Position numbers and translations under genes: made by a program | The notes under the pieces: generated by a model | Told to the model about the DNA's origin: nothing | Database searches by the model: none | What the model saw: the letters and a program-made list of their open reading frames with translations, nothing else | Shown here: in pieces, positions 2,885 through 62,278 of the stretch | Layout of the letters: the number at the start of each line of letters is the position of its first letter | Position numbering within the stretch: the first letter of the stretch is position 1 | Assembly: GCA_023244835.1 (NCBI GenBank) | Contig: JAHFLN010000001.1 | Span: forward strand, 4,912 to 68,911 | DNA length: 64,000 nucleotides | From: Candidatus Harrisonbacteria bacterium | GTDB taxonomy: Bacteria > Patescibacteriota > Minisyncoccia > UBA6257 > UBA11618 | Reading direction: 5' to 3'

Positions 2885-4159
2885 CTAGAAGCTCGCGTCG
2901 TATTCGCGCACGATGAGCTGGCTGTCGATCTGCTTCATGGTTTCCAAGGCTACGGAGACGACGATCAGGAGTCCGGTGCCGCCGATCGAGAGGCGCTGTA
3001 TGCCCGTGATCATCTGCGTGAGGTTCGGGAGCACTGCCACGAAGCCCAGGAATACCGCGCCGAAGAACGTGATGCGGTTCAGAAGTTTCGAGAGAAAGGC
3101 GGTTGTGGGCTCTCCAGGCCTGATGCCGGGGATGAAGCCGCCTGCCTGCTGGAGGTTCTTTGAGATCTCCTTTGGGTCGAAGGTGACCATGGTGTAGAAA
3201 TAGGTGAAAATAACGACAAGCACGAAGTAGAAGGCGCTGTAGATGCCTTGGTTGTTGAACACGTAGCTCACCCAGTCGTTCACTTTCGCGGACCAGTCGA
3301 GCGAGACGATCGCGATGATCTGCGCGAAGAATTGCGGGAAGAGCATCACGGAGATCGCGAAGATGATAGGCATCACGCCGGCCTGGTTCACGCGGAGCGG
3401 CAGGTAGGTGGCGACGCCGCCGTATATTTTGTTTCCGCGTACGCGCTTCGCGTAAGATACCGGCACTTTGCGCTCCCCCTCGGTAACGAATACCACGGCG
3501 CCGATGATTACGACGCTCAATACGGCGAACGCGAGATAGGTCATGAGCACGGTCGGGTCATAGGTCGCGATCGCCGTCTGCAGTTCCTGGGGTAGGCGGC
3601 TTACGATGCCGGCGAAAATGATCAGGGAGACGCCGTTGCCTATCTTTTGTTTTGTAATCAGGTTTCCGATCCACACGAGCACCATGGAGCCTGCGGTCGC
3701 GATGATTACGTTCGTGACGATCGTATATATACCGAAATCCGTGAAGATTCCCTGGCGGTTCAGGAGGTTTAAGAGGCCATAGGATTGGAGCGCCGCGAGC
3801 GGGATCGTGAGATAGAGCGAGAGGCGGTTGAATTTTGCCCGACCCATGGCGCCCTCTTCGTAATAGAGCACTTTAAGGCTCGGGAAAACCATGGTCAGGA
3901 GCTGCATCACGATCGTTGCCGTGATGTAGGGGCCGACCCCGAGCATCACTATGGAGAGGTTGTTCAACGCGCCGCCCGAGAATACGTTTAGGAAGCCAAG
4001 CAGCTGGTTCGATGAGAACAGCTCGACGAGCCGCGCATGGTCGATGCCCGGGAGCGGGATATTTGCCATCAGGCGGAATATAAGAAGGAGGCCGGCGATG
4101 ACCCCGATCTTTCTCCGGATTTCCGGGATTTTGAATGCCGAAAGGAATCGGTCGAGCAT
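2885..4159 (-). CDS. secY: Preprotein translocase subunit SecY
   Basis: 424 aa polytopic membrane protein, SecY-like sequence, position after rplO. Confidence 0.93.
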   Translation of the reverse strand: MLDRFLSAFKIPEIRRKIGVIAGLLLIFRLMANIPLPGIDHARLVELFSSNQLLGFLNVFSGGALNNLSIVMLGVGPYITATIVMQLLTMVFPSLKVLYYEEGAMGRAKFNRLSLYLTIPLAALQSYGLLNLLNRQGIFTDFGIYTIVTNVIIATAGSMVLVWIGNLITKQKIGNGVSLIIFAGIVSRLPQELQTAIATYDPTVLMTYLAFAVLSVVIIGAVVFVTEGERKVPVSYAKRVRGNKIYGGVATYLPLRVNQAGVMPIIFAISVMLFPQFFAQIIAIVSLDWSAKVNDWVSYVFNNQGIYSAFYFVLVVIFTYFYTMVTFDPKEISKNLQQAGGFIPGIRPGEPTTAFLSKLLNRITFFGAVFLGFVAVLPNLTQMITGIQRLSIGGTGLLIVVSVALETMKQIDSQLIVREYDASF

Positions 4160-9194: not shown

Positions 9195-9563
9195 TTATAC
9201 GATCTCTTCCGCGAGGGAGAAGATGCCGTCGAAGCCCATTTCCTTGATTTCGCGCGGGATTGGCCCGAAGATGCGTGTCGCGCGCGGCTGCTTCTTGTCG
9301 TCGATCAAGACGACCGCGTTCTCATCGAAGCGCAGGCGCGTGCCATCGGGGCGGTTTATCGCGTGCGCCGTGCGCACGATGATGCATTTCACGATATCCT
9401 TCTTCTTTACCGCCTTCCGAGGCTCTGCGGTCTGGACGGACGCGATGACCGTCTCTCCGAGGTGTGCGTAGCGCTTGCGGCTCCCGCCGAGCAGCCTGAA
9501 GACACGGACGAATTTCGCGCCCGAGTTATCCGCAACTTTCAGTATCGAACGTTCCTGTACCAT
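9195..9563 (-). CDS. rplN: 50S ribosomal protein L14
   Basis: MVQERSILKVADNSGAK L14 N-terminus. Confidence 0.93.
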   Translation of the reverse strand: MVQERSILKVADNSGAKFVRVFRLLGGSRKRYAHLGETVIASVQTAEPRKAVKKKDIVKCIIVRTAHAINRPDGTRLRFDENAVVLIDDKKQPRATRIFGPIPREIKEMGFDGIFSLAEEIV

Positions 9564-9706
9564 ACCCTGTGTTACAAATTAAGCTTATTACTTATAAATC
9601 TATTGAAACTTGATTATACTCCCGATTTCTTTATTTGCCTAGTGTGTTTGCGATTCTTTAATCCCGCATTTTGCGGGATGGCTGAATTTGTAACACGGGG
9701 CATATG
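9561..9706. repeat. Family-1 palindromic intergenic element (terminal inverted repeats CCCTGTGTTACAAATT / AATTTGTAACACGGGG) between rpsQ and rplN
   Basis: ~18 bp inverted arms 105 bp apart; left arm overlaps the rplN start codon; inner hairpin CCCGCATTTTGCGGG. Confidence 0.7.
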
Positions 9707-24501: not shown

Positions 24502-24969
24502 TTACCAGCCGAAATGAGCGAACGCGCGGTTCGCTTCGGCCATGCGGTGCATGTCGAGCTTCTTCTTAACCGCCGTACCCTCGTTTTTCGACGCCGCGAT
24601 GAATTCCTCGGCCAGCTTTTCAGCCATTGACTTTCCCTTCTTCGCTCCCGCGGTCGCGATCAGCCAGCGGACGGCAAGCATGTACTGGCGTTCGGGGCGC
24701 ACCGGGCGCGGCACCTGGTAGTTCGCGCCTCCCACGCGACGGCTCGACACCTCGACTGCTGGGGAGATGTTCTCCAGCGCCTTCTCGAATACCTCGATCG
24801 GAGCCTGCTTGTGCTTCTTCTCGATCAGGTCAAACGCATCGTAGACGATCTTCTCGGCCACGGCCTTCTTGCCATCCTCCATTATATAGTTGATAAAGCG
24901 ACCGACGGCGATATTACCGTGCTTCAGGTCTCCTGCGTGATCGCGCTTATAATTACGTTTCTTTCTCAT
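24502..24969 (-). CDS. rpsG: 30S ribosomal protein S7
   Basis: 155 aa S7-like sequence; synteny rpsL-rpsG-fusA. Confidence 0.92.
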
Positions 24970-25086
24970 CCCGTTAGAAGCAGGTTATCGCAGATAACCG
25001 CATAGTAGCATTAGATATAGTATTGATTGACTCGATGATGATACTCATTTTTTTCTAATAAGGCAACTTAAGGCGCTTCTAACGGG
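24970..25086. repeat. Family-2 palindromic element, long copy: CCCGTTAGAAGC ... GCTTCTAACGGG, fills rpsL-rpsG spacer
   Basis: 12 bp perfect inverted arms 94 bp apart; inner hairpin GGTTATC-GCAG-GATAACC; embedded TTGCCT-17-TATCAT promoter-like for rpsG. Confidence 0.65.
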
Positions 25087-25087
25087 A

Positions 25088-25513
25088 TTATGCGGCCTCG
25101 GCCTTCTTAGGGGTTTTCGCGCCATATTTAGAGCGCTGCTGCTTCCTATCTTTCACGCCGCTCGTGTCGAGGACTCCGCGGAGGATATGGTAGCGCACGC
25201 CCGGAAGATCCTTAACCTTGCCGCCGCGGATTACGACTACCGAGTGCTCTTGGAGGTTGTGGCCTTCGCCCGGGATGTATGCCGTGACTTCGCTGCCGTT
25301 CGTAAGCCGTATACGGGCAACTTTCCGAAGCGCCGAGTTCGGCTTCTTGGGGGTCGTCGTGAAGACCTTCACGCATACGCCGCGCTTGAAGGGTGACGCC
25401 GAGTTCACCGGCTTGTTCAGGATATTATTGAAATACTTCAAAAGGGCCGGAGACTTTGATTTCGTCTTGAGCGGCTTCCTTCCTTTACGCACCAATTGTC
25501 GCATTGTCGGCAT
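25088..25513 (-). CDS. rpsL: 30S ribosomal protein S12 (with C-terminal Lys-rich extension)
   Basis: [13 protein letters not shown]...[11 protein letters not shown] motifs. Confidence 0.93.
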
Positions 25514-35656: not shown

Positions 35657-36430
35657 ATGAATACATGGACTAAAAAGAGTATAGAACTGGCGCGTAAACC
35701 GGGATATTTAGATGCCTTGGGCGCTATTTATGTTATGAATATAAATCCTAGTAGACCACTAACGGAAGAAGTTGAGAAAAAAATACGAGAGGCTTTCCAT
35801 AATAGAAAAAATAAAGAGTTAGTTCATCTGTTAATTCAAAACGAAGTCTTTCCGGTCAAGGATTCTTATGTCGGATTTTTAAGACTTAACCCTGCGGCTA
35901 TTGATCAAAATCCGATAACTATCAATAGAATATCAGAAAGGCTTTACTCATTGGGGATTGAAGCACTTCTTAAGGAGGCAACTCGTCCTAAAGAGACAAA
36001 TCGTCAACTCGGACACTCATTCAAAAAATGGTTGCCTCAATTAGGTTATCCCGTACTTAATGTAGAAGAGTTTGCCAATACTCGAGGTGTGGCCATCCTT
36101 GCCGGTGGGGACGCACAACTTGCAAAATACGCTAGAGAGAAGTTGGGCTGTGAATTATCCAAAGGTATTGATTTTGTTTTAAAGAAAGGAAAGAATCATA
36201 TTATTGGTGAAGCTAAATTTCTTACAACTCCTGGAGGAGAGCAAGATCGAGGTTTTGATGACGCATCAAATTTTATTAAAGGAAAATTGCGCCCAAATGT
36301 GAAAAGAATAGCTGTTTTGGATGGCTATATCTGGGTAGAACGAACTGGTGGGCTCCACAATAAGATCGTGATGAACAACCTTGATATTTTTAGTGCTCTA
36401 CTCCTTCCCGAATATATTAAAAAGTTTTAG
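35657..36430 (+). CDS. Putative type II restriction endonuclease, PD-(D/E)xK-like
   Basis: AT-rich gene beginning 22 bp after the tRNA; candidate GIDFV...IIGEAKF catalytic motif; convergent with and overlapping the methyltransferase stop. Confidence 0.5.
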   Translation: MNTWTKKSIELARKPGYLDALGAIYVMNINPSRPLTEEVEKKIREAFHNRKNKELVHLLIQNEVFPVKDSYVGFLRLNPAAIDQNPITINRISERLYSLGIEALLKEATRPKETNRQLGHSFKKWLPQLGYPVLNVEEFANTRGVAILAGGDAQLAKYAREKLGCELSKGIDFVLKKGKNHIIGEAKFLTTPGGEQDRGFDDASNFIKGKLRPNVKRIAVLDGYIWVERTGGLHNKIVMNNLDIFSALLLPEYIKKF

Positions 36431-38187
36431 GTTGCAGAATAAACCTCAAAAGAAGCTTTTAATTTAGCTCCTTCTTTTTCTATAAGACTAATAGCATTTT
36501 TATTGAGGTCTATTCCTATCCAATTTCTTTTTAGTTCTTCAGCGGCTAGTAGAGTAGTACCCGACCCCGCAAAACAATCCAAAACCAAGTCGTCTTGCGT
36601 TGTAGAGCTCTGAATAATTTGTTTCAATAAGTCTCGATTTTTCTGTGTTGGGTAAAGAGAGCTCTCGAAACCAGGATCTTTAAAGTCCCACACGTCCTGA
36701 AGTTTCTTGCCTCGGTTTTCGTCTGCGTAGATTTTTTTTCGAGGATTCCCTGAACTAGACCACTCAATCAATCCTTCTTTATCTAGGCGTGTTAATTCTT
36801 CAGGGTTATATCTCCAATGCCTTCCTTTCGGTGGGAGCATGCCTTTCCATTCTCTGCCCGTAGGACCATTTCGTGTCTCTCCTTTAGCGTGAAGAGGTGT
36901 GGTGGCATACCTACGCCCTTTTTTGTCAATCTTGGGAAATTGTTTTATGATCTCCTCCTCAGTTAAGGCTATACGATGGTCCGTCCAAGACATTGGGTCA
37001 TGTCCATTTGGTTTTGATTTGGAATAAAAATATATTACATCTTTTATGTTCCCGAAAGCTTTCCTATCGAAATTTTTTGGATTACATTTTATTCTGGTAA
37101 TGTCATTTCTAAAATTTTCCTCTCCGAATACTTCGTCCATTAATACTTTTACATAATGTCCTATTTTCTGATCAATATGGAGGTATATGCTACCTGTTTC
37201 GGAAAGTAATTCTCTAAGAAGGATCAGTCTTTTTCTTAAAAACTCAAGGAAATCTGTGTTTGTAAGTTTGTCGCTATAAAAGTTTTCTTCGTTATAACCA
37301 ACAAAATCTTGCCCTGTACCAAAAGGTGGATCGATATAAATTAATTCGATATTGCCCTTTATATTTTTATTTTCATACAAATTCTTAAGAACACTGAGAT
37401 TGTCGCCTGCAATTAATTTATTTACAGACTTTGATCCATATTTCTTAGTAAGTTTAAGTTGAGCCGCTTTGATTTCAAGAACTTCTTCTTCCTTTATTTT
37501 TCCTCGATAAATCAACTCAGCTCCTCCTTTAGGACGACGTGCATGAGGAATCGTATGAAGAATATTTTCTGCTCTCTCCCTCTCGGAATATCTTTCGTTG
37601 GATTTAATAATATCTATAACTACACCTTGGATAGTTAACCGTTCAGGTTCAATAAAAAGAGGTAGCATTGTTTGGTTCGCAGGCTGTAGCCGTATCCTAT
37701 TTTTCTCCCTAAAAAACTTTTTAAGTGTGGCGGACTCCTGATCAATCAAAGCAACAACTTTTTGACCATTGTGTGCTACCGATTGACTCTGAATCAACAC
37801 AATGTCTCCATCGTTGATATTCTCATCAATCATACTATCGCCATACACACGTAGAGCGTAAACATCACTACTTTTAGGCATTTTCGATTTCGGGATAGCG
37901 ATTGTCTCCTTTTCTTGAATTGCTTCAATTGGCTCGCCTGCAGCAATAGTACCCAGGAGAGGAATGCTTACCAGGGGTTCGCCAGAGGAAATACTTATAG
38001 AACGTGCTTTATTTTCAGATTTATCCAAATATCCACTATCTCGTAGTTTGTTTATATGAAAATGTGCAGTAGAAACAGAGGCAAGTTTAAAATGCCTCTG
38101 TATTTCCTCTAAGGAGGGGGCATACCCTTTCTTTTTGGAAGACTCTTTTACGAAATCGAAGACCTCTTTTTGCTTTTTGGTGAGCAT
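36427..38187 (-). CDS. LexA-like repressor (HTH plus S24 peptidase) fused to beta-class amino-DNA methyltransferase (DPPF ... FAGSGTT)
   Basis: N-terminal ~205 aa align to LexA (IAAGEPI cleavage site, LRVYGDSM Ser, DGDIVLI, NGQKVVALID, TLKKF Lys); C-terminal motif IV IDPPF then motif I DCFAGSGTT. Confidence 0.8.
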   Translation of the reverse strand: MLTKKQKEVFDFVKESSKKKGYAPSLEEIQRHFKLASVSTAHFHINKLRDSGYLDKSENKARSISISSGEPLVSIPLLGTIAAGEPIEAIQEKETIAIPKSKMPKSSDVYALRVYGDSMIDENINDGDIVLIQSQSVAHNGQKVVALIDQESATLKKFFREKNRIRLQPANQTMLPLFIEPERLTIQGVVIDIIKSNERYSERERAENILHTIPHARRPKGGAELIYRGKIKEEEVLEIKAAQLKLTKKYGSKSVNKLIAGDNLSVLKNLYENKNIKGNIELIYIDPPFGTGQDFVGYNEENFYSDKLTNTDFLEFLRKRLILLRELLSETGSIYLHIDQKIGHYVKVLMDEVFGEENFRNDITRIKCNPKNFDRKAFGNIKDVIYFYSKSKPNGHDPMSWTDHRIALTEEEIIKQFPKIDKKGRRYATTPLHAKGETRNGPTGREWKGMLPPKGRHWRYNPEELTRLDKEGLIEWSSSGNPRKKIYADENRGKKLQDVWDFKDPGFESSLYPTQKNRDLLKQIIQSSTTQDDLVLDCFAGSGTTLLAAEELKRNWIGIDLNKNAISLIEKEGAKLKASFEVYSAT

Positions 38188-44271: not shown

Positions 44272-45954
<1,683 letters not shown>

Positions 45955-45966
45955 TCAGGGCGGATA

Positions 45967-46263
45967 TTACGACTCAAGGATCGCGAGGATATCCGCCTCG
46001 TCGGCAACCAAATACTTCTTGCCGTCAAGCTCGACCTCGTCCGGCCCGTATTTCTTGAAAAGCACGAGGTCTCCCACCTTCACGGACATCGGATTCAGCT
46101 CCCCTCGGTCATTCCGCTTGCCCGCGCCGACCGCGAGCACGCGCCCCTTTACCGGCCGTTCTTTTTCCGCTGTATCCGGCAGGACGATGCCTGATTTCGT
46201 CATGCGGTCTTCTTCCATGGCATCGAGAAACACGCGATCAGCAATGGGTTTTATGGTCATCAT
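45967..46263 (-). CDS. groS: Co-chaperonin GroES (as the C-terminal 98 aa of a 328 aa ORF)
   Basis: MMTIKPIADRVFLD...GKRNDRGELNPMSVKVGDLVLF typical GroES; no stop separates it from the upstream nucleotidyltransferase-fold region. Confidence 0.85.
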   Translation of the reverse strand: MMTIKPIADRVFLDAMEEDRMTKSGIVLPDTAEKERPVKGRVLAVGAGKRNDRGELNPMSVKVGDLVLFKKYGPDEVELDGKKYLVADEADILAILES

Positions 46264-46953
46264 AGTACCTAGGAGTATATCCTGTTTTTTCCCATGGTCA
46301 AGAGCGCGAACGCTTTCTCCCGGCGCTTTTTTCGGACGGAAGCACAGCTCGACGCGGCTTTCCGAAACGCTGATGCGCGATTCGCTTGACGCGCCGAATC
46401 GAATGCTCTGCGCCGCGATCCGGCGCTCCTGAATACGCCTCATGAGCGCTTCGCCCCAGGCGCCGAATGCGAAATCGAAGAGCGTCTCCGCGCACGCGAC
46501 AAGCGGGATCTTCTCCTTCCTATAGCGATATCTCACATTCGCGAATATCCCCTCGCGCATCGCCCCTGATGCCGTAAGGAATTCCCCAATCGCCTCCCGC
46601 GTTCCCACGACGGGCACGAGCGACGCGGCGAGGGCCCGTGCATACGCGTCCTCCGGCGCGTCGAGGCGGGCATCCGTCGCTATAAAATGATTCAGGCAAA
46701 AGCCTCTGCCGCGCGCGGCGATATGCGTACGGAGTCCGAGCAAACGGAAAATCCCCAAACAGAAAAAACGCGCCGTATACATACGGCCCGGCCGCGTTCC
46801 GACGATCACATCCCAGTCGGAATTCCTATGGGCATCGCCTGTCGCGAGCGATCCCGACACGAGCACTAAGTCGACGAAGGGGATCCACTCGAAGATCCAG
46901 ACCTTCCCGAGCAGGCCGTGCCATGCGTGGTCGAAAATTCCTTTTTGGTCCAT
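46264..46953 (-). CDS. Nucleotidyltransferase-fold domain ORF continuous in-frame with groES
   Basis: Pol-beta-type motif LVSGSLATGDAHRNSDWDVIV (G[GS]-x9-13-DxD); ATG at 46953 three nt after the rmuC stop. Confidence 0.5.
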
Positions 46954-46959
46954 CAGGGG

Positions 46960-48036
46960 TTATGACTCCCCATCCTGCTCCTCCGCTCGCGGCTTTTCAA
47001 GCAGCGTTGCCTTTATTCCGCTCGATTCCCCCGTCACCTTCAACACATCCTTATCGATCTTTCCGAGCTCTTTGTATGCGGTATTGTACGCGTTCACCGC
47101 AGTGCCAAGATGCGTTCCGATTTTTTCAAAGTAACCCTGATATGCCCCCAGATGCCTGTCGAGATCCTGCACGCGCCGAATGATTATCTCGATCTCCTTG
47201 TGAAGATGCTCGCGGCGTATACCCTGGATAACCGTCTGCAAGTATGCGAGAAACGAGGTTGGTGAGACGATCACCACCTTCTTGTCCTTCATCGCGTACT
47301 CTATGAGATCCTGAGCGCTCGCCGTACCCACGCGGTTTACCAAGAGGTCATAATAGATCGCCTCGGCCGGAATAAACATGAACGCGAAATCCATCGTATC
47401 CTCCTCCGGCCGGACATATTTCGCCGTCTCGTCGATGCGATTCTTCAGGTCGGTCCTGAACGCTTTCTCGAGCCGCGCGCGTTCCTCGCCGTCCTTTGCC
47501 TCGACCAGGCGGTTGTAATTCTCCAAGCTGAATTTCGAGTCGATAGGGATCACCTTCTCCTGATAGAAGACTGCCGCATCAACGATATCCCCGTTCTTGA
47601 ACGCGTATTGCATCTGATATTGGCCGGGCGGAAAGACATTTTTTAGGAGGGTTTCCAAGAGGTATTCGCCGAGTATCCCCCGCTGCTTCGGATTTTTTAA
47701 AATATCCTCGAGTCCCCTGATCTGCTCCATACCGAGCGCGACCTGCTTGTTCGTCGCATCGAGCTTCACGAGCTTTTCGGCAACTTCCTTCATCATGTTC
47801 GCGCTCGAAGCAAACTGGCCGTGCGAAAGGCGATTCGATTCCATAAGCTTTTCGTCGAGCGACTTCCGCAAGCTTTCATTCGCCCGCGCCAATTCGGCCA
47901 TCTGGGCCTGAAGCATCAAGAAGCCCTGCTCGGATGCCCGATCTTCCGGAACATCGAGCTTCTTCCTTATGAGTATGAATAACCCCGTGAAGCCTACAAT
48001 GACAATGACGGCGAGGACCCATGTGCCGGATATCAT
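46960..48036 (-). CDS. rmuC: DNA recombination protein RmuC
   Basis: N-terminal TM, coiled-coil, RmuC-like C-terminal domain. Confidence 0.8.
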   Translation of the reverse strand: MISGTWVLAVIVIVGFTGLFILIRKKLDVPEDRASEQGFLMLQAQMAELARANESLRKSLDEKLMESNRLSHGQFASSANMMKEVAEKLVKLDATNKQVALGMEQIRGLEDILKNPKQRGILGEYLLETLLKNVFPPGQYQMQYAFKNGDIVDAAVFYQEKVIPIDSKFSLENYNRLVEAKDGEERARLEKAFRTDLKNRIDETAKYVRPEEDTMDFAFMFIPAEAIYYDLLVNRVGTASAQDLIEYAMKDKKVVIVSPTSFLAYLQTVIQGIRREHLHKEIEIIIRRVQDLDRHLGAYQGYFEKIGTHLGTAVNAYNTAYKELGKIDKDVLKVTGESSGIKATLLEKPRAEEQDGES

Positions 48037-48107
48037 CCGTTCAGGATATGCCAGCCGGGCAAAAAAAAATAGACGGAGCCGTTCCGTCAGTAACCTATAA
48101 AAAAATA

Positions 48108-48282
48108 AACGGTTGTCGACCCATCATACCCCTCCCATGCGCTCGTGATCTTGGGCGGGCTCACGAAGGAAATAGCCGTAGCCTGCAAACAGATCGCATG
48201 TCCAGGACTTCAACGCATCGCCAAGACGATACTCTTTCATGGACGACGTGTGACCGTGCAGTGATGGGCCGACAAACCGTTT
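48108..48282 (-). ncRNA. Candidate structured RNA 1: 20 bp terminal helix enclosing ~130 nt, intrinsic terminator at 48061-48088
   Basis: AAACGGTTGTCGACCCATCA (48108-48127) pairs with TGATGGGCCGACAAACCGTTT (48262-48282); TTGACG-17-TAAATT promoter-like at ~48285-48315 on minus. Confidence 0.35.
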
Positions 48283-48345
48283 AACCTTATTAATTTACAT
48301 TAATGACTCCATCGCGTCAATATCCGTCCGCACTGGGCAAAAAAA

Positions 48346-48511
48346 ATAGATAGCCGGTTCCTCGTATTTCCATCATGCGGCCTTTCGGAACATCGCTCCT
48401 GGAAATAGCCGAGAGGGCCTATGATCCGTATCCATGGCGTCTATGCCTCGCTGGCAACGTTAGCGAGACTCTTCCACGAGGGATCATAGCGAGGAACCGG
48501 TCGCTATCTAG
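48346..48511 (-). ncRNA. Candidate structured RNA 2 or complex terminator: 19 bp terminal helix plus T8
   Basis: ATAGATAGCCGGTTCCTCG pairs with CGAGGAACCGGTCGCTATCTAG; internal nested helices; A8 on plus strand = T8 on minus. Confidence 0.35.
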
Positions 48512-48543
48512 TACTTACACGGTAGTCTGAAAACTGCTTTGTG

Positions 48544-49272
48544 TCAATGACAGCTCGGATCGGCGGGGTTGATTTCGCAGAGTTGTGACTTCACGACCGT
48601 GACGGTCTTCGGAATCTCCACTGACTGGCCCCCCGCATTACCGCACTTCAGAGTATAGGTCGTCGTGCGCGGCGGCGTTACCGTTACTCCGCCGGAAGAA
48701 GGATCGGCGAGCTTGCCGACCGTCGGCAGTATGCGACACTCGTCGGCATCCTCGCATTGCCAGGTGAGGCGCGATGTCTTCTGAGGCGATATGAGAACTT
48801 TCGGCCCCGCATTAAAGGAACAAGCGATGTCGAAAAGATGCGGCGGTTCGACAGGCACGATGCACTTCGCGAGAGAAACCTTATATGTCGGCCCGTTGAA
48901 ATGAAGCCACCCTACCACGTCAGATCCCCATGCATATCCCGAAAGACTGCATCCCAAAGCTTCCGTTCCCACGACTTTAGGTCCGTATGTCGCCCCCTTC
49001 AGCTTCACGATTCCGTCCCAGTCCCCGGAATTCGCGGAAATGACATTCGAGCAATCACCGCCCTCGGTTGCCGAGCAGACCCGGGCAGTATCCCCCGCAA
49101 GCTTGATCCACCCCACATTCTCCGACCATGCATATCCTCCGAACGCTCCCGTTTCCTCGTCTATCGTTGCCTGGTACCCGGGACCCGCAAAGCCGACCCA
49201 GCCGATATTTTCCGACCACGCATGGCCGGAGAGCGAGACGAGCGCGAAGAGCGGAACGAACAGAAATCCCAT
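48544..49272 (-). CDS. Secreted protein with three internal YAWSENIGW-type repeats and Cys-rich C-terminal region
   Basis: Signal peptide MGFLFVPLFALVSLSGHA; repeats GHAWSENIGWVGFAGP, GGYAWSENVGWIKLAG, SGYAWGSDVVGWLHFNG. Confidence 0.6.
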   Translation of the reverse strand: MGFLFVPLFALVSLSGHAWSENIGWVGFAGPGYQATIDEETGAFGGYAWSENVGWIKLAGDTARVCSATEGGDCSNVISANSGDWDGIVKLKGATYGPKVVGTEALGCSLSGYAWGSDVVGWLHFNGPTYKVSLAKCIVPVEPPHLFDIACSFNAGPKVLISPQKTSRLTWQCEDADECRILPTVGKLADPSSGGVTVTPPRTTTYTLKCGNAGGQSVEIPKTVTVVKSQLCEINPADPSCH

Positions 49273-54327: not shown

Positions 54328-54335
54328 ATGAGCAG

Positions 54336-54430
54336 TATACCCCGTGTTACAAATCCGACCATATATGACCCGTCATATTAGCTCGTCCATAGCGTTTCTA
54401 CACCACGTCGGATTTGTAACACGGGGTATA
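54336..54430. repeat. Family-1 palindromic element: perfect 24 bp inverted repeat TATACCCCGTGTTACAAATCCGAC / GTCGGATTTGTAACACGGGGTATA
   Basis: Arms 54336-54359 and 54407-54430; 47 bp spacer; begins 9 nt from cdaA start codon. Confidence 0.8.
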
Positions 54431-54440
54431 CCTCGTCGTG

Positions 54441-62141: not shown

Positions 62142-62278
62142 CATGCCCCGTGTTATAAATCCGATCTTTCCCGCGGGGAAAATAAAAAACCACGAAATCC
62201 ATATATGATAATCAGAACGATGCATATCAATGACCCCTATCAACCCGATAATCAATCGGATTTGTAACACGGGGCATG
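62142..62278. repeat. Family-1 palindromic element: CATGCCCCGTGTTATAAATCCGAT / ATCGGATTTGTAACACGGGGCATG (23/24 match)
   Basis: Arms 62142-62165 and 62255-62278, 89 bp spacer; right-arm terminal ATG is the dcd start codon. Confidence 0.8.

Follow-up and report, generated by a model that had tools for sequence, protein, structure and literature searches.

Bacterial Y RNAs are non-essential, patchily distributed RNAs of about 100-200 nt in which a long stem that closes the two ends lies under a multi-branched domain, and they can occur as tandem paralogs. We describe here a family of structured RNA elements, named after its member E1, that shares with the bacterial Y RNAs YrlA and YrlB (encoded next to rsr/Ro60) its size, a 5′-3′ closing stem (P1), tandem paralogs and patchiness. 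E1 was found in the window, a 64,000-nucleotide stretch of DNA from Candidatus Harrisonbacteria bacterium. In contrast to the Y RNAs, the E1 family has no match in Rfam, and neither the tRNA-like T-arm motif nor the Ro-binding bulged-helix sequence is seen in its members. Among 27 ORFs scanned against Pfam over 30 kb (33.6-63.7 kb of the window), there is likewise no gene for TROVE/Ro or RtcB, nor for Hfq or a reverse transcriptase.

Several other systems resemble E1 in part. The 6S RNAs (RF00013 and relatives) are alike in length, in their paired termini, in their dedicated promoter and, presumably, in high stability; however, members of the E1 family form a three-way junction rather than a rod with a central bubble, occur in tandem, are dispensable and match no 6S model. 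Retron msr-msd loci also have a closing helix of terminal inverted repeats (a1/a2-like) around stem-loops and a promoter directly upstream, whereas E1 has no reverse transcriptase nearby, carries a putative U-run terminator right after the helix, and is followed by rmuC. Attenuators and leader-derived small RNAs share with E1 a same-strand site before an operon and predicted termination just before the first gene. Unlike in these leaders, it is the 20-bp helix closing the entire fold that would serve E1 as terminator stem; no competing structure is evident, and promoter-like sites lie inside the array. No known riboswitch aptamer class was matched in the Rfam search. A further parallel is with Weinberg/Breaker-type orphan ncRNA motifs, which are likewise narrowly distributed, intergenic, supported by covariation and equipped with promoter and terminator; the E1 family differs in being absent from the 4227 families of Rfam 15 and, so far, in being confined to one locus in one sub-clade of Patescibacteria.

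We consider it probable that E1 is a stand-alone gene for a structured small RNA of about 185 nt. The regulatory RNAs of Patescibacteria (CPR) are essentially uncharted, and the tiny genomes of these organisms leave little room for non-essential sequence. The family is a candidate for RNA databases and an entry point for metatranscriptomics or co-culture systems.

The E1 element and its tandem paralog

The genes around E1 all lie on the minus strand. They comprise groEL (44272-45921), situated downstream of groES (45967-46953); rmuC (46960-48036; Pfam RmuC, 5.8e-55), the first gene of a conserved rmuC-groES-groEL cluster and the gene immediately downstream of E1; and a 242-aa ORF (48544-49272) without a Pfam match. 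Between rmuC and this ORF is a gap of ∼0.5 kb (48037-48543), the sole long non-coding stretch in the gene row. The ORFs upstream of the gap resemble secreted proteins and have the look of repeat proteins, again without Pfam matches. An earlier note, made from the letters of the window, held that the gap contains no credible ORF. Mechanical ORFs of 87 aa (plus strand) and 38 aa (minus strand), which that note missed, do exist there, but no ORF is conserved across the six family members described below, whose longest ORFs (12-41 aa) are mutually unrelated. We have therefore rejected small-protein coding as an explanation of the element.

Two features of the surrounding genes deserve mention in their own right. 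The groES ORF encodes 328 aa with a Cpn10 domain only at residues 234-325, and the called products in relatives span 170-328 aa and abut or overlap rmuC, which suggests either that GroES carries a long N-terminal extension in this clade or that the starts were mis-called. Farther along the window, an ORF for a Tsp45I-type restriction enzyme (35657-36430, plus strand) adjoins a 586-aa ORF (36427-38187, minus strand) in which a LexA DNA-binding domain occurs together with an S24 peptidase and an N6/N4 DNA methylase. Together with DUF4238, DUF2975 and MFS genes, these two ORFs form a block (35657-38187 region) that is missing from the syntenic region of one relative, L174.

The body of E1 occupies positions 48107-48282 of the minus strand, as supported by covariance-model matches (48097-48281) and by covariation, and is a three-way junction closed by P1. 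The 5′ strand of this helix, AAACGGUUUGUCGGCCCAUCA (48262-48282; genomic arm TGATGGGCCGACAAACCGTTT), pairs on the minus strand with the 3′ strand, UGAUGGGUCGACAACCGUUU (48107-48126; genomic arm AAACGGTTGTCGACCCATCA), to give 20 pairs, among them one G.U, and a single bulged U. These are the complementary 20-bp ends that had been pointed out earlier, displaced by a single base to the left of the 48108 given then. Directly after P1 comes the 5′ strand of P2, CUGCA (48257-48261), which pairs with UGCAG (48183-48187) and thereby encloses a variable domain of 69 nt with inner hairpins. The joining strand J2/5, GCUACGGC (48175-48182), is the most sequence-conserved single-stranded segment of the family in the six-member alignment (A9). 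It leads into P5, defined by covariation in the same six members, in which UAUUUC (48169-48174) faces GGGGUA (48127-48132), the latter abutting the 3′ strand of P1. Folding z-scores for the segment are −3.1 on the minus strand and −4.9 on the plus strand, and none of 200 shuffled sequences folds as well on either strand.

A second element, E2 (48347-48510, minus strand), lies just upstream of E1. This diverged paralog, likewise overlooked in the earlier note, adopts the same three-way junction with a folding z-score of −3.9. Its closing helix has 19 bp and a sequence unlike that of E1 (UAGAUAGCGACCGGUUCCUCG / CGAGGAACCGGCUAUCUA), and is followed by a run of eight U residues at 48339-48346 of the minus strand.

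The signals that would define the transcripts are described here as candidates. Upstream of E1 is a sigma-70-like promoter sequence, TTGACG-17-TAAATT (48320-48292, minus strand), which the note had also recognized; the closing helix begins about 10 nt past the end of its −10 box. A predicted transcript of about 185 nt would run from ∼48285 to ∼48100. For E2, the candidate promoter is TTGACA-17-TACCGT (48519-48547, minus strand), with a weak −10 box; it falls below the threshold of our promoter scan, was read directly from the sequence, and has a −35 box that overlaps the stop codon of the 242-aa ORF.

A stable, GC-containing stem followed directly by a U-run, the hallmark of intrinsic terminators, is found at two places at and beyond the 3′ end of the E1 body. 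The first is P1 itself, which together with a run of seven U residues (48099-48105, minus strand; not remarked on before) would constitute the terminator and set the 3′ end of the RNA. P1 is an atypical terminator stem in that its loop is the entire RNA. The second is a small 6-bp GC hairpin (48072-48088) with a U9 run (48061-48069), which together span 48061-48088 of the minus strand about 25 nt before the rmuC ATG. This hairpin, present just as the earlier reading of the gap had it, is the sole terminator-like site returned by a scan of 47800-48800. It may serve as a back-up terminator and/or belong to the promoter or leader of rmuC. The related locus L084 keeps the U9-GCC tract and not the small hairpin, and the segment from U9 to the rmuC ATG is conserved between the window and L084. 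The second terminator may thus be, in part, a promoter or leader element of rmuC. The layout in the window, read with these signals, is promoter-E2-terminator, promoter-E1-terminator(s), rmuC.

Homologs and covariation support for the fold

The best relatives of RmuC among species-representative genomes, all from Patescibacteria/Paceibacteria MAGs, reach at most 58% identity. Closer RmuC proteins, with 62-81% identity, come from metagenome assemblies, and it was their contigs that we compared. Six members of the E1 family are known from three lineages and a single genomic site: E1 and E2 in the window, A, B and C in L084, and F in L090. They range in size from 133 to ∼190 nt.

The homology models were built in three rounds. 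A model (R1) derived from a trimmed core alignment (A3) found only E1 (55 bits), F (58 bits) and A (42 bits) with default filters, and was unusable with filters off because the long loop insertions exceed the model window. A second model (R2) was rebuilt from full-length E1, F and A only; it scores E1 at 162 bits and then detects E2, which was not in the training set, with 49 bits (E = 8e-12), B with 29 bits (6e-6) and C with 22.5 bits (4e-4), although its structure annotation was inherited from R1, which had been seeded with all six members in trimmed form. The third model (R3) gives 136 bits for E1 and 130 bits for E2, and finds no further copy elsewhere in the 64-kb window, nor in 173 other rmuC loci from Patescibacteria (∼1.15 Mb in total).

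Other searches returned no additional members. With nhmmer, E1 and E2 yielded no matches among 80 GTDB rmuC loci plus the window, and did not link to each other. A metagenome scan with the RmuC alignment found only two close relatives, L093 and L094, both of which lack a family member. There were no matches to viral contigs in a scan for the conserved motif (0) or to phage genomes by blastn; a crude scan for a helix plus T-run was too noisy for use. Rfam gave nothing for the gap of the window at the gathering score or at E≤10, and nothing for the elements in relatives at E≤5. The absence of an Rfam hit had been put forward as an argument against a structured RNA, but this does not hold because the family is simply not in Rfam.

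All six members share the same three-way junction, composed of P1, P2, the conserved joining strand GGCUACGGCUAUUUCC and P5. P1 comprises 19-21 bp in all six, P2 begins without an intervening base after P1, and P5 (UAUUYC/GRAAUA) abuts the 3′ strand of P1, such that the three junction strands measure 0, 8-11 and 0 nt. The strand of 8-11 nt has the sequence GGCUACGG, with a by-eye consensus close to GGCUACGGC.

Covariation argues strongly for this fold. In alignment A9, standard pairs occupy 93.9% of the cells, compared with 36-39% when the partners are slid by 1-3 columns. Compensatory changes, with both sides changed, occur at 25 of 31 pairs (17/19 in P1, 4/5 in P2 and 4/7 in P5), and the observed covariation score is reached by none of 500 shuffles; A9 was, however, fitted to the structure model, and the sequence relatedness of the members inflates the shuffle statistics. 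Nonetheless, RNAalifold applied to a sequence-only MAFFT alignment also recovers P1, with compensatory changes at 15 of 17 pairs. In five of the six members, only 0-2 kcal/mol separate the consensus junction from the minimum free energy, and in F the junction is itself the optimum. The strand is indicated by 12 G.U versus 4 A.C cells when the pairs are read in the sense of rmuC. For so small a number of sequences, the evidence for the fold is unusually clean. The proposal of a minus-strand structured ncRNA of ∼180-200 nt, made from the window alone, is supported by four further members at the same site in L084 and L090, by their covariation and by the consistent placement of promoter-like and terminator-like sequences around them.

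We also considered a kissing interaction between the P4 and P5 loops (UCUUGG/CCAAGA in E1; AACGUUGC/GCGAUGUU in E2). Shuffled sequences equal it in 133 of 300 and 46 of 300 cases, respectively, and it is missing in the other members; it was rejected.

The placement of putative transcription signals follows the helices closely. A U-run follows P1 in five of the six members (E1, E2, B, C and F). In front of P1 of E1, A, C and F lies a promoter-like site that agrees with the consensus at 9-11 of 12 positions and ends 9-12 nt short of the helix. This spacing from −10 box to P1 holds for four of the four units that are preceded by a terminator or an ORF. Member A has no U-run, and B, which is positioned after A, has no promoter, as would fit a co-transcribed A-B pair. 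The layout in L084 then reads promoter-A-B-terminator, promoter-C-terminator, rmuC.

Turnover at the rmuC leader

The order of the 242-aa ORF, rmuC, groES and groEL is conserved in the relatives, with tight linkage of the last three in all of them, but the content of the spacer before rmuC is not, and the number of elements varies from 0 to 3. L084/L085 (RmuC 74% identical to that of the window) has a 675-bp spacer with the three elements A, B and C, and L089/L090 (78%) has a 198-bp spacer with the single element F. A relative with 79% identity (L081) has a spacer of ∼70 bp and no element. Other spacers hold something different: a ∼70-nt hairpin in short spacers where gene calls overlap it (L083, L086 and L093; 75-81%), a perfect palindrome in spacers of 140-170 bp (L092 and L173; 68-77%), or different structured RNAs in longer spacers (L091 and L094; 67-74%). 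Four further loci (L174-L177), whose RmuC falls in the 90%-identity cluster of L090, have a 28-bp spacer and no element.

Sequence details at the ends of P1 and P2 divide the members into two types. E2 resembles A, with P1 ending in CCUCG and P2 beginning with CYAU in both, whereas E1 resembles B and C, in which P1 ends in CAUCA and P2 begins with CUGYA. As judged by these sequences, A of L084 is the ortholog of E2, and B and C are orthologs of E1. The window and L084 have the same array order, type II and then type I, and the array is therefore older than the split of these lineages. It has been lost, or was never gained, in most close relatives. In a neighbor-joining tree of RmuC, L084 and the window form successive early branches and L090 is nested among element-free relatives, a placement that implies repeated loss or transfer of the element. 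The leader of rmuC-groESL is a site of rapid RNA-element turnover.

The other occupants of this leader are of interest in themselves. Perfect palindromes of ∼32-38 bp occur in relatives free of the small RNA (L173, 975-1012; L092, 2909-2946; L091, 2916-2947), for example TTTACTATACACTTCGCG/GTCGCGAAGTGTATAGTAAA, and could represent operators, hairpins in the RNA or what remains of closing helices. The conserved ∼70-nt hairpin (L093, ∼131-210; L083, ∼2945-3010; L086, ∼2960-3035) represents another kind of leader element at this site, with a stem of 11-12 bp (GGGGCUUGUCGG/CCGACAAGCCC) and a conserved loop (GGCGUAGGGA), and is overlapped by the called rmuC starts. In these three loci it is preceded by a promoter-like TTGCGA-16/17-TATAGT or TATTAT, and in L093 and L086 it is followed by a U-run immediately before the likely rmuC ATG. 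Two larger RNAs lie at the site in other relatives. That of L094 (1073-1246) is ∼175 nt long with a closing helix of ∼24 bp and a z-score of −5.9; that of L091 (∼2668-2856) consists of a promoter-like sequence and then a two-domain RNA that ends in a 14-bp stem plus U7, with a z-score of −4.6. Neither scores with R2 or R3, and both were therefore left out of the family. The related contigs come from groundwater and freshwater metagenomes, for example ERZ27280317 and ERZ1292627.

Possible functions and competing explanations

In our best reading, E1 and its relatives would form a new family of small RNAs, narrow in distribution and transcribed independently, in which the closing helix is also the terminator. 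In the scheme suggested by the sequence, a sigma-70-type promoter would start transcription 1-4 nt before the 5′ end of the folded RNA, which would form the three-way junction with the 20-bp P1 joining its 5′ and 3′ ends. P2 would open the variable domain directly after P1, the joining strand would come next, and P5 (UAUUUC/GRAAUA) would stack against the 3′ strand of P1. P1 plus the U-run would act as the intrinsic terminator, so that the closing helix doubles as a clamp on both ends. If P1 and the U-run do terminate transcription, the released RNA would have both ends in a helix, as expected of a stable, abundant RNA. E1 and E2 would make up a two-gene array.

As to what such an RNA does, we tentatively propose that it acts in trans, binding or sequestering a protein through the conserved joining strand and GAG-rich loops, although we would put this at somewhat less than an even chance. 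The conserved single-stranded segment of the junction would be the obvious recognition surface, and it is this segment together with the anatomy of a stand-alone gene that makes a trans-acting, probably protein-binding role the favored one. Some findings speak against it. All known members are found immediately before rmuC and on its strand, a site that a purely trans-acting RNA does not need, and no partner protein was found in the 33.6-63.7 kb part of the window. The element is also dispensable, given that a relative with an RmuC at least 90% identical (L174 compared with L090) lacks it.

The most serious rival, which we regard as unlikely but worth keeping in view, is that the elements form a cis-acting leader or attenuator array of rmuC-groES-groEL, an alternative that the earlier note had raised. 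Transcription from one or more upstream promoters would be terminated in part at each P1 plus U-run, the short RNAs would be by-products or leader-derived small RNAs, and read-through would set the output of the operon, perhaps depending on temperature or a bound factor. If the RNAs do control the chaperonin operon, these organisms would have a new way of regulating heat-shock genes. The location before rmuC in six of six members favors this idea, as does the tight linkage of the three genes in all relatives. Further support comes from L090, in which a TTGACG-17-TACTAT promoter is separated from the rmuC ATG by the element, whereas the element-free L174 has the same TACTAT −10 box 11 nt before the ATG. 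In the window, L084 and L090, no promoter that passes our scan lies between the last terminator and rmuC, and the leader of other relatives is occupied by hairpins or structured RNAs of a different kind. However, rmuC could have a promoter of its own in TATTTT, which resembles a weak −10 box and has TTACTG 16 nt upstream (48089-48062).

Other observations are more difficult to reconcile with attenuation. Near-perfect helices of 19-21 bp would be far too stable for a switchable terminator, and an alternative antiterminator pairing is not evident in the folds computed for the six members. The internal units have strong promoter-like sequences of their own (10-11 of 12 consensus matches), which a single leader does not need. 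The conserved three-way junction and junction sequence exceed the needs of a terminator, and the same operon lacks the element in most close relatives. The trans and cis roles are nevertheless compatible, and the array may yield stable RNAs and at the same time restrict transcription into the operon. The putative terminators of E1 and E2 would probably lower read-through into rmuC-groES-groEL.

A bolder idea, to which we give little weight, is that E1 and E2 belong to a fast-turnover, lineage-specific array of structured RNAs of ultra-small CPR bacteria, with a new regulatory or conflict-related job. The RNAs might serve to decoy or soak up a host, phage or RNA-processing protein, or be a governor that couples rmuC-groESL to a signal, with the site serving as a swap hot spot for structured RNAs such as those of L091 and L094 and the 70-nt hairpin.

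It is quite improbable that the elements are MITE-like or palindromic mobile DNA, in which terminal inverted repeats are recognized as DNA and the RNA structure is incidental. The architecture does look like terminal inverted repeats around ∼135 bp, and 0-3 copies occur at one site, present or absent among relatives with RmuC proteins at least 90% identical. However, the P1 sequences of E1, E2, A and F differ from one another by compensatory substitution, P2 and P5 covary too, and the excess of G.U over A.C cells (12 versus 4) points to pairing in RNA. Promoter-like sequences and U-runs lie precisely at the helix ends, and the array order of type II and then type I is kept in the window and L084. 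A comparison of L090 with L174 reveals neither a target-site duplication nor a clean insertion boundary, the whole intergenic region being different, and no other copy exists in the 64-kb window or the ∼1.15 Mb of related loci (173 loci). A genuine inverted-repeat family elsewhere in the window, described below, looks quite different.

The least credible of these alternatives is a divergent 6S RNA, which would mimic an open promoter and sequester RNA polymerase; the earlier note had speculated on a 6S-type architecture. The ∼185-nt length, paired 5′ and 3′ ends and own promoter-like sequence agree with it, and the poor sequence conservation of 6S RNAs means that a failed model match is not decisive, but no Rfam model, 6S or other, matches even at E≤10, and the three-way junction has no bases on two of its three sides and no central bubble between closing and terminal stems. 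Nor would one expect a housekeeping 6S gene to vary in size from 133 to ∼190 nt, to have tandem paralogs or to be missing from close relatives. Self-cleaving ribozymes (hammerhead, twister and others) were rejected for want of an Rfam match, with junction strands of 0, 8-11 and 0 nt unlike the hammerhead core; hammerhead, RNase P, SRP and 5S RNAs, compared by eye, similarly gave no model match and have the wrong junction layout.

The window also holds repeats that are separate from E1 and E2. Three segments (9562-9703, 54335-54431 and 62142-62278) share conserved inverted repeats of 23-25 nt, approximately ATGCCCCGTGTTACAAATCCGA, enclosing 47-96 nt; they have the look of MITE-like or palindromic intergenic repeats and are unrelated to the E1 family. 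Two inverted-repeat pairs (1409-1467 and 24968-25088) have the core CGTTAGAAGC/GCTTCTAACG in common and may represent a small family of repeats or protein-binding sites. Finally, a hairpin at 2828-2883, with 26-nt arms (85% complementary), a 4-nt loop and U-rich flanks, gives a spurious 22-bit match with the trimmed core model; it probably acts as a bidirectional terminator.
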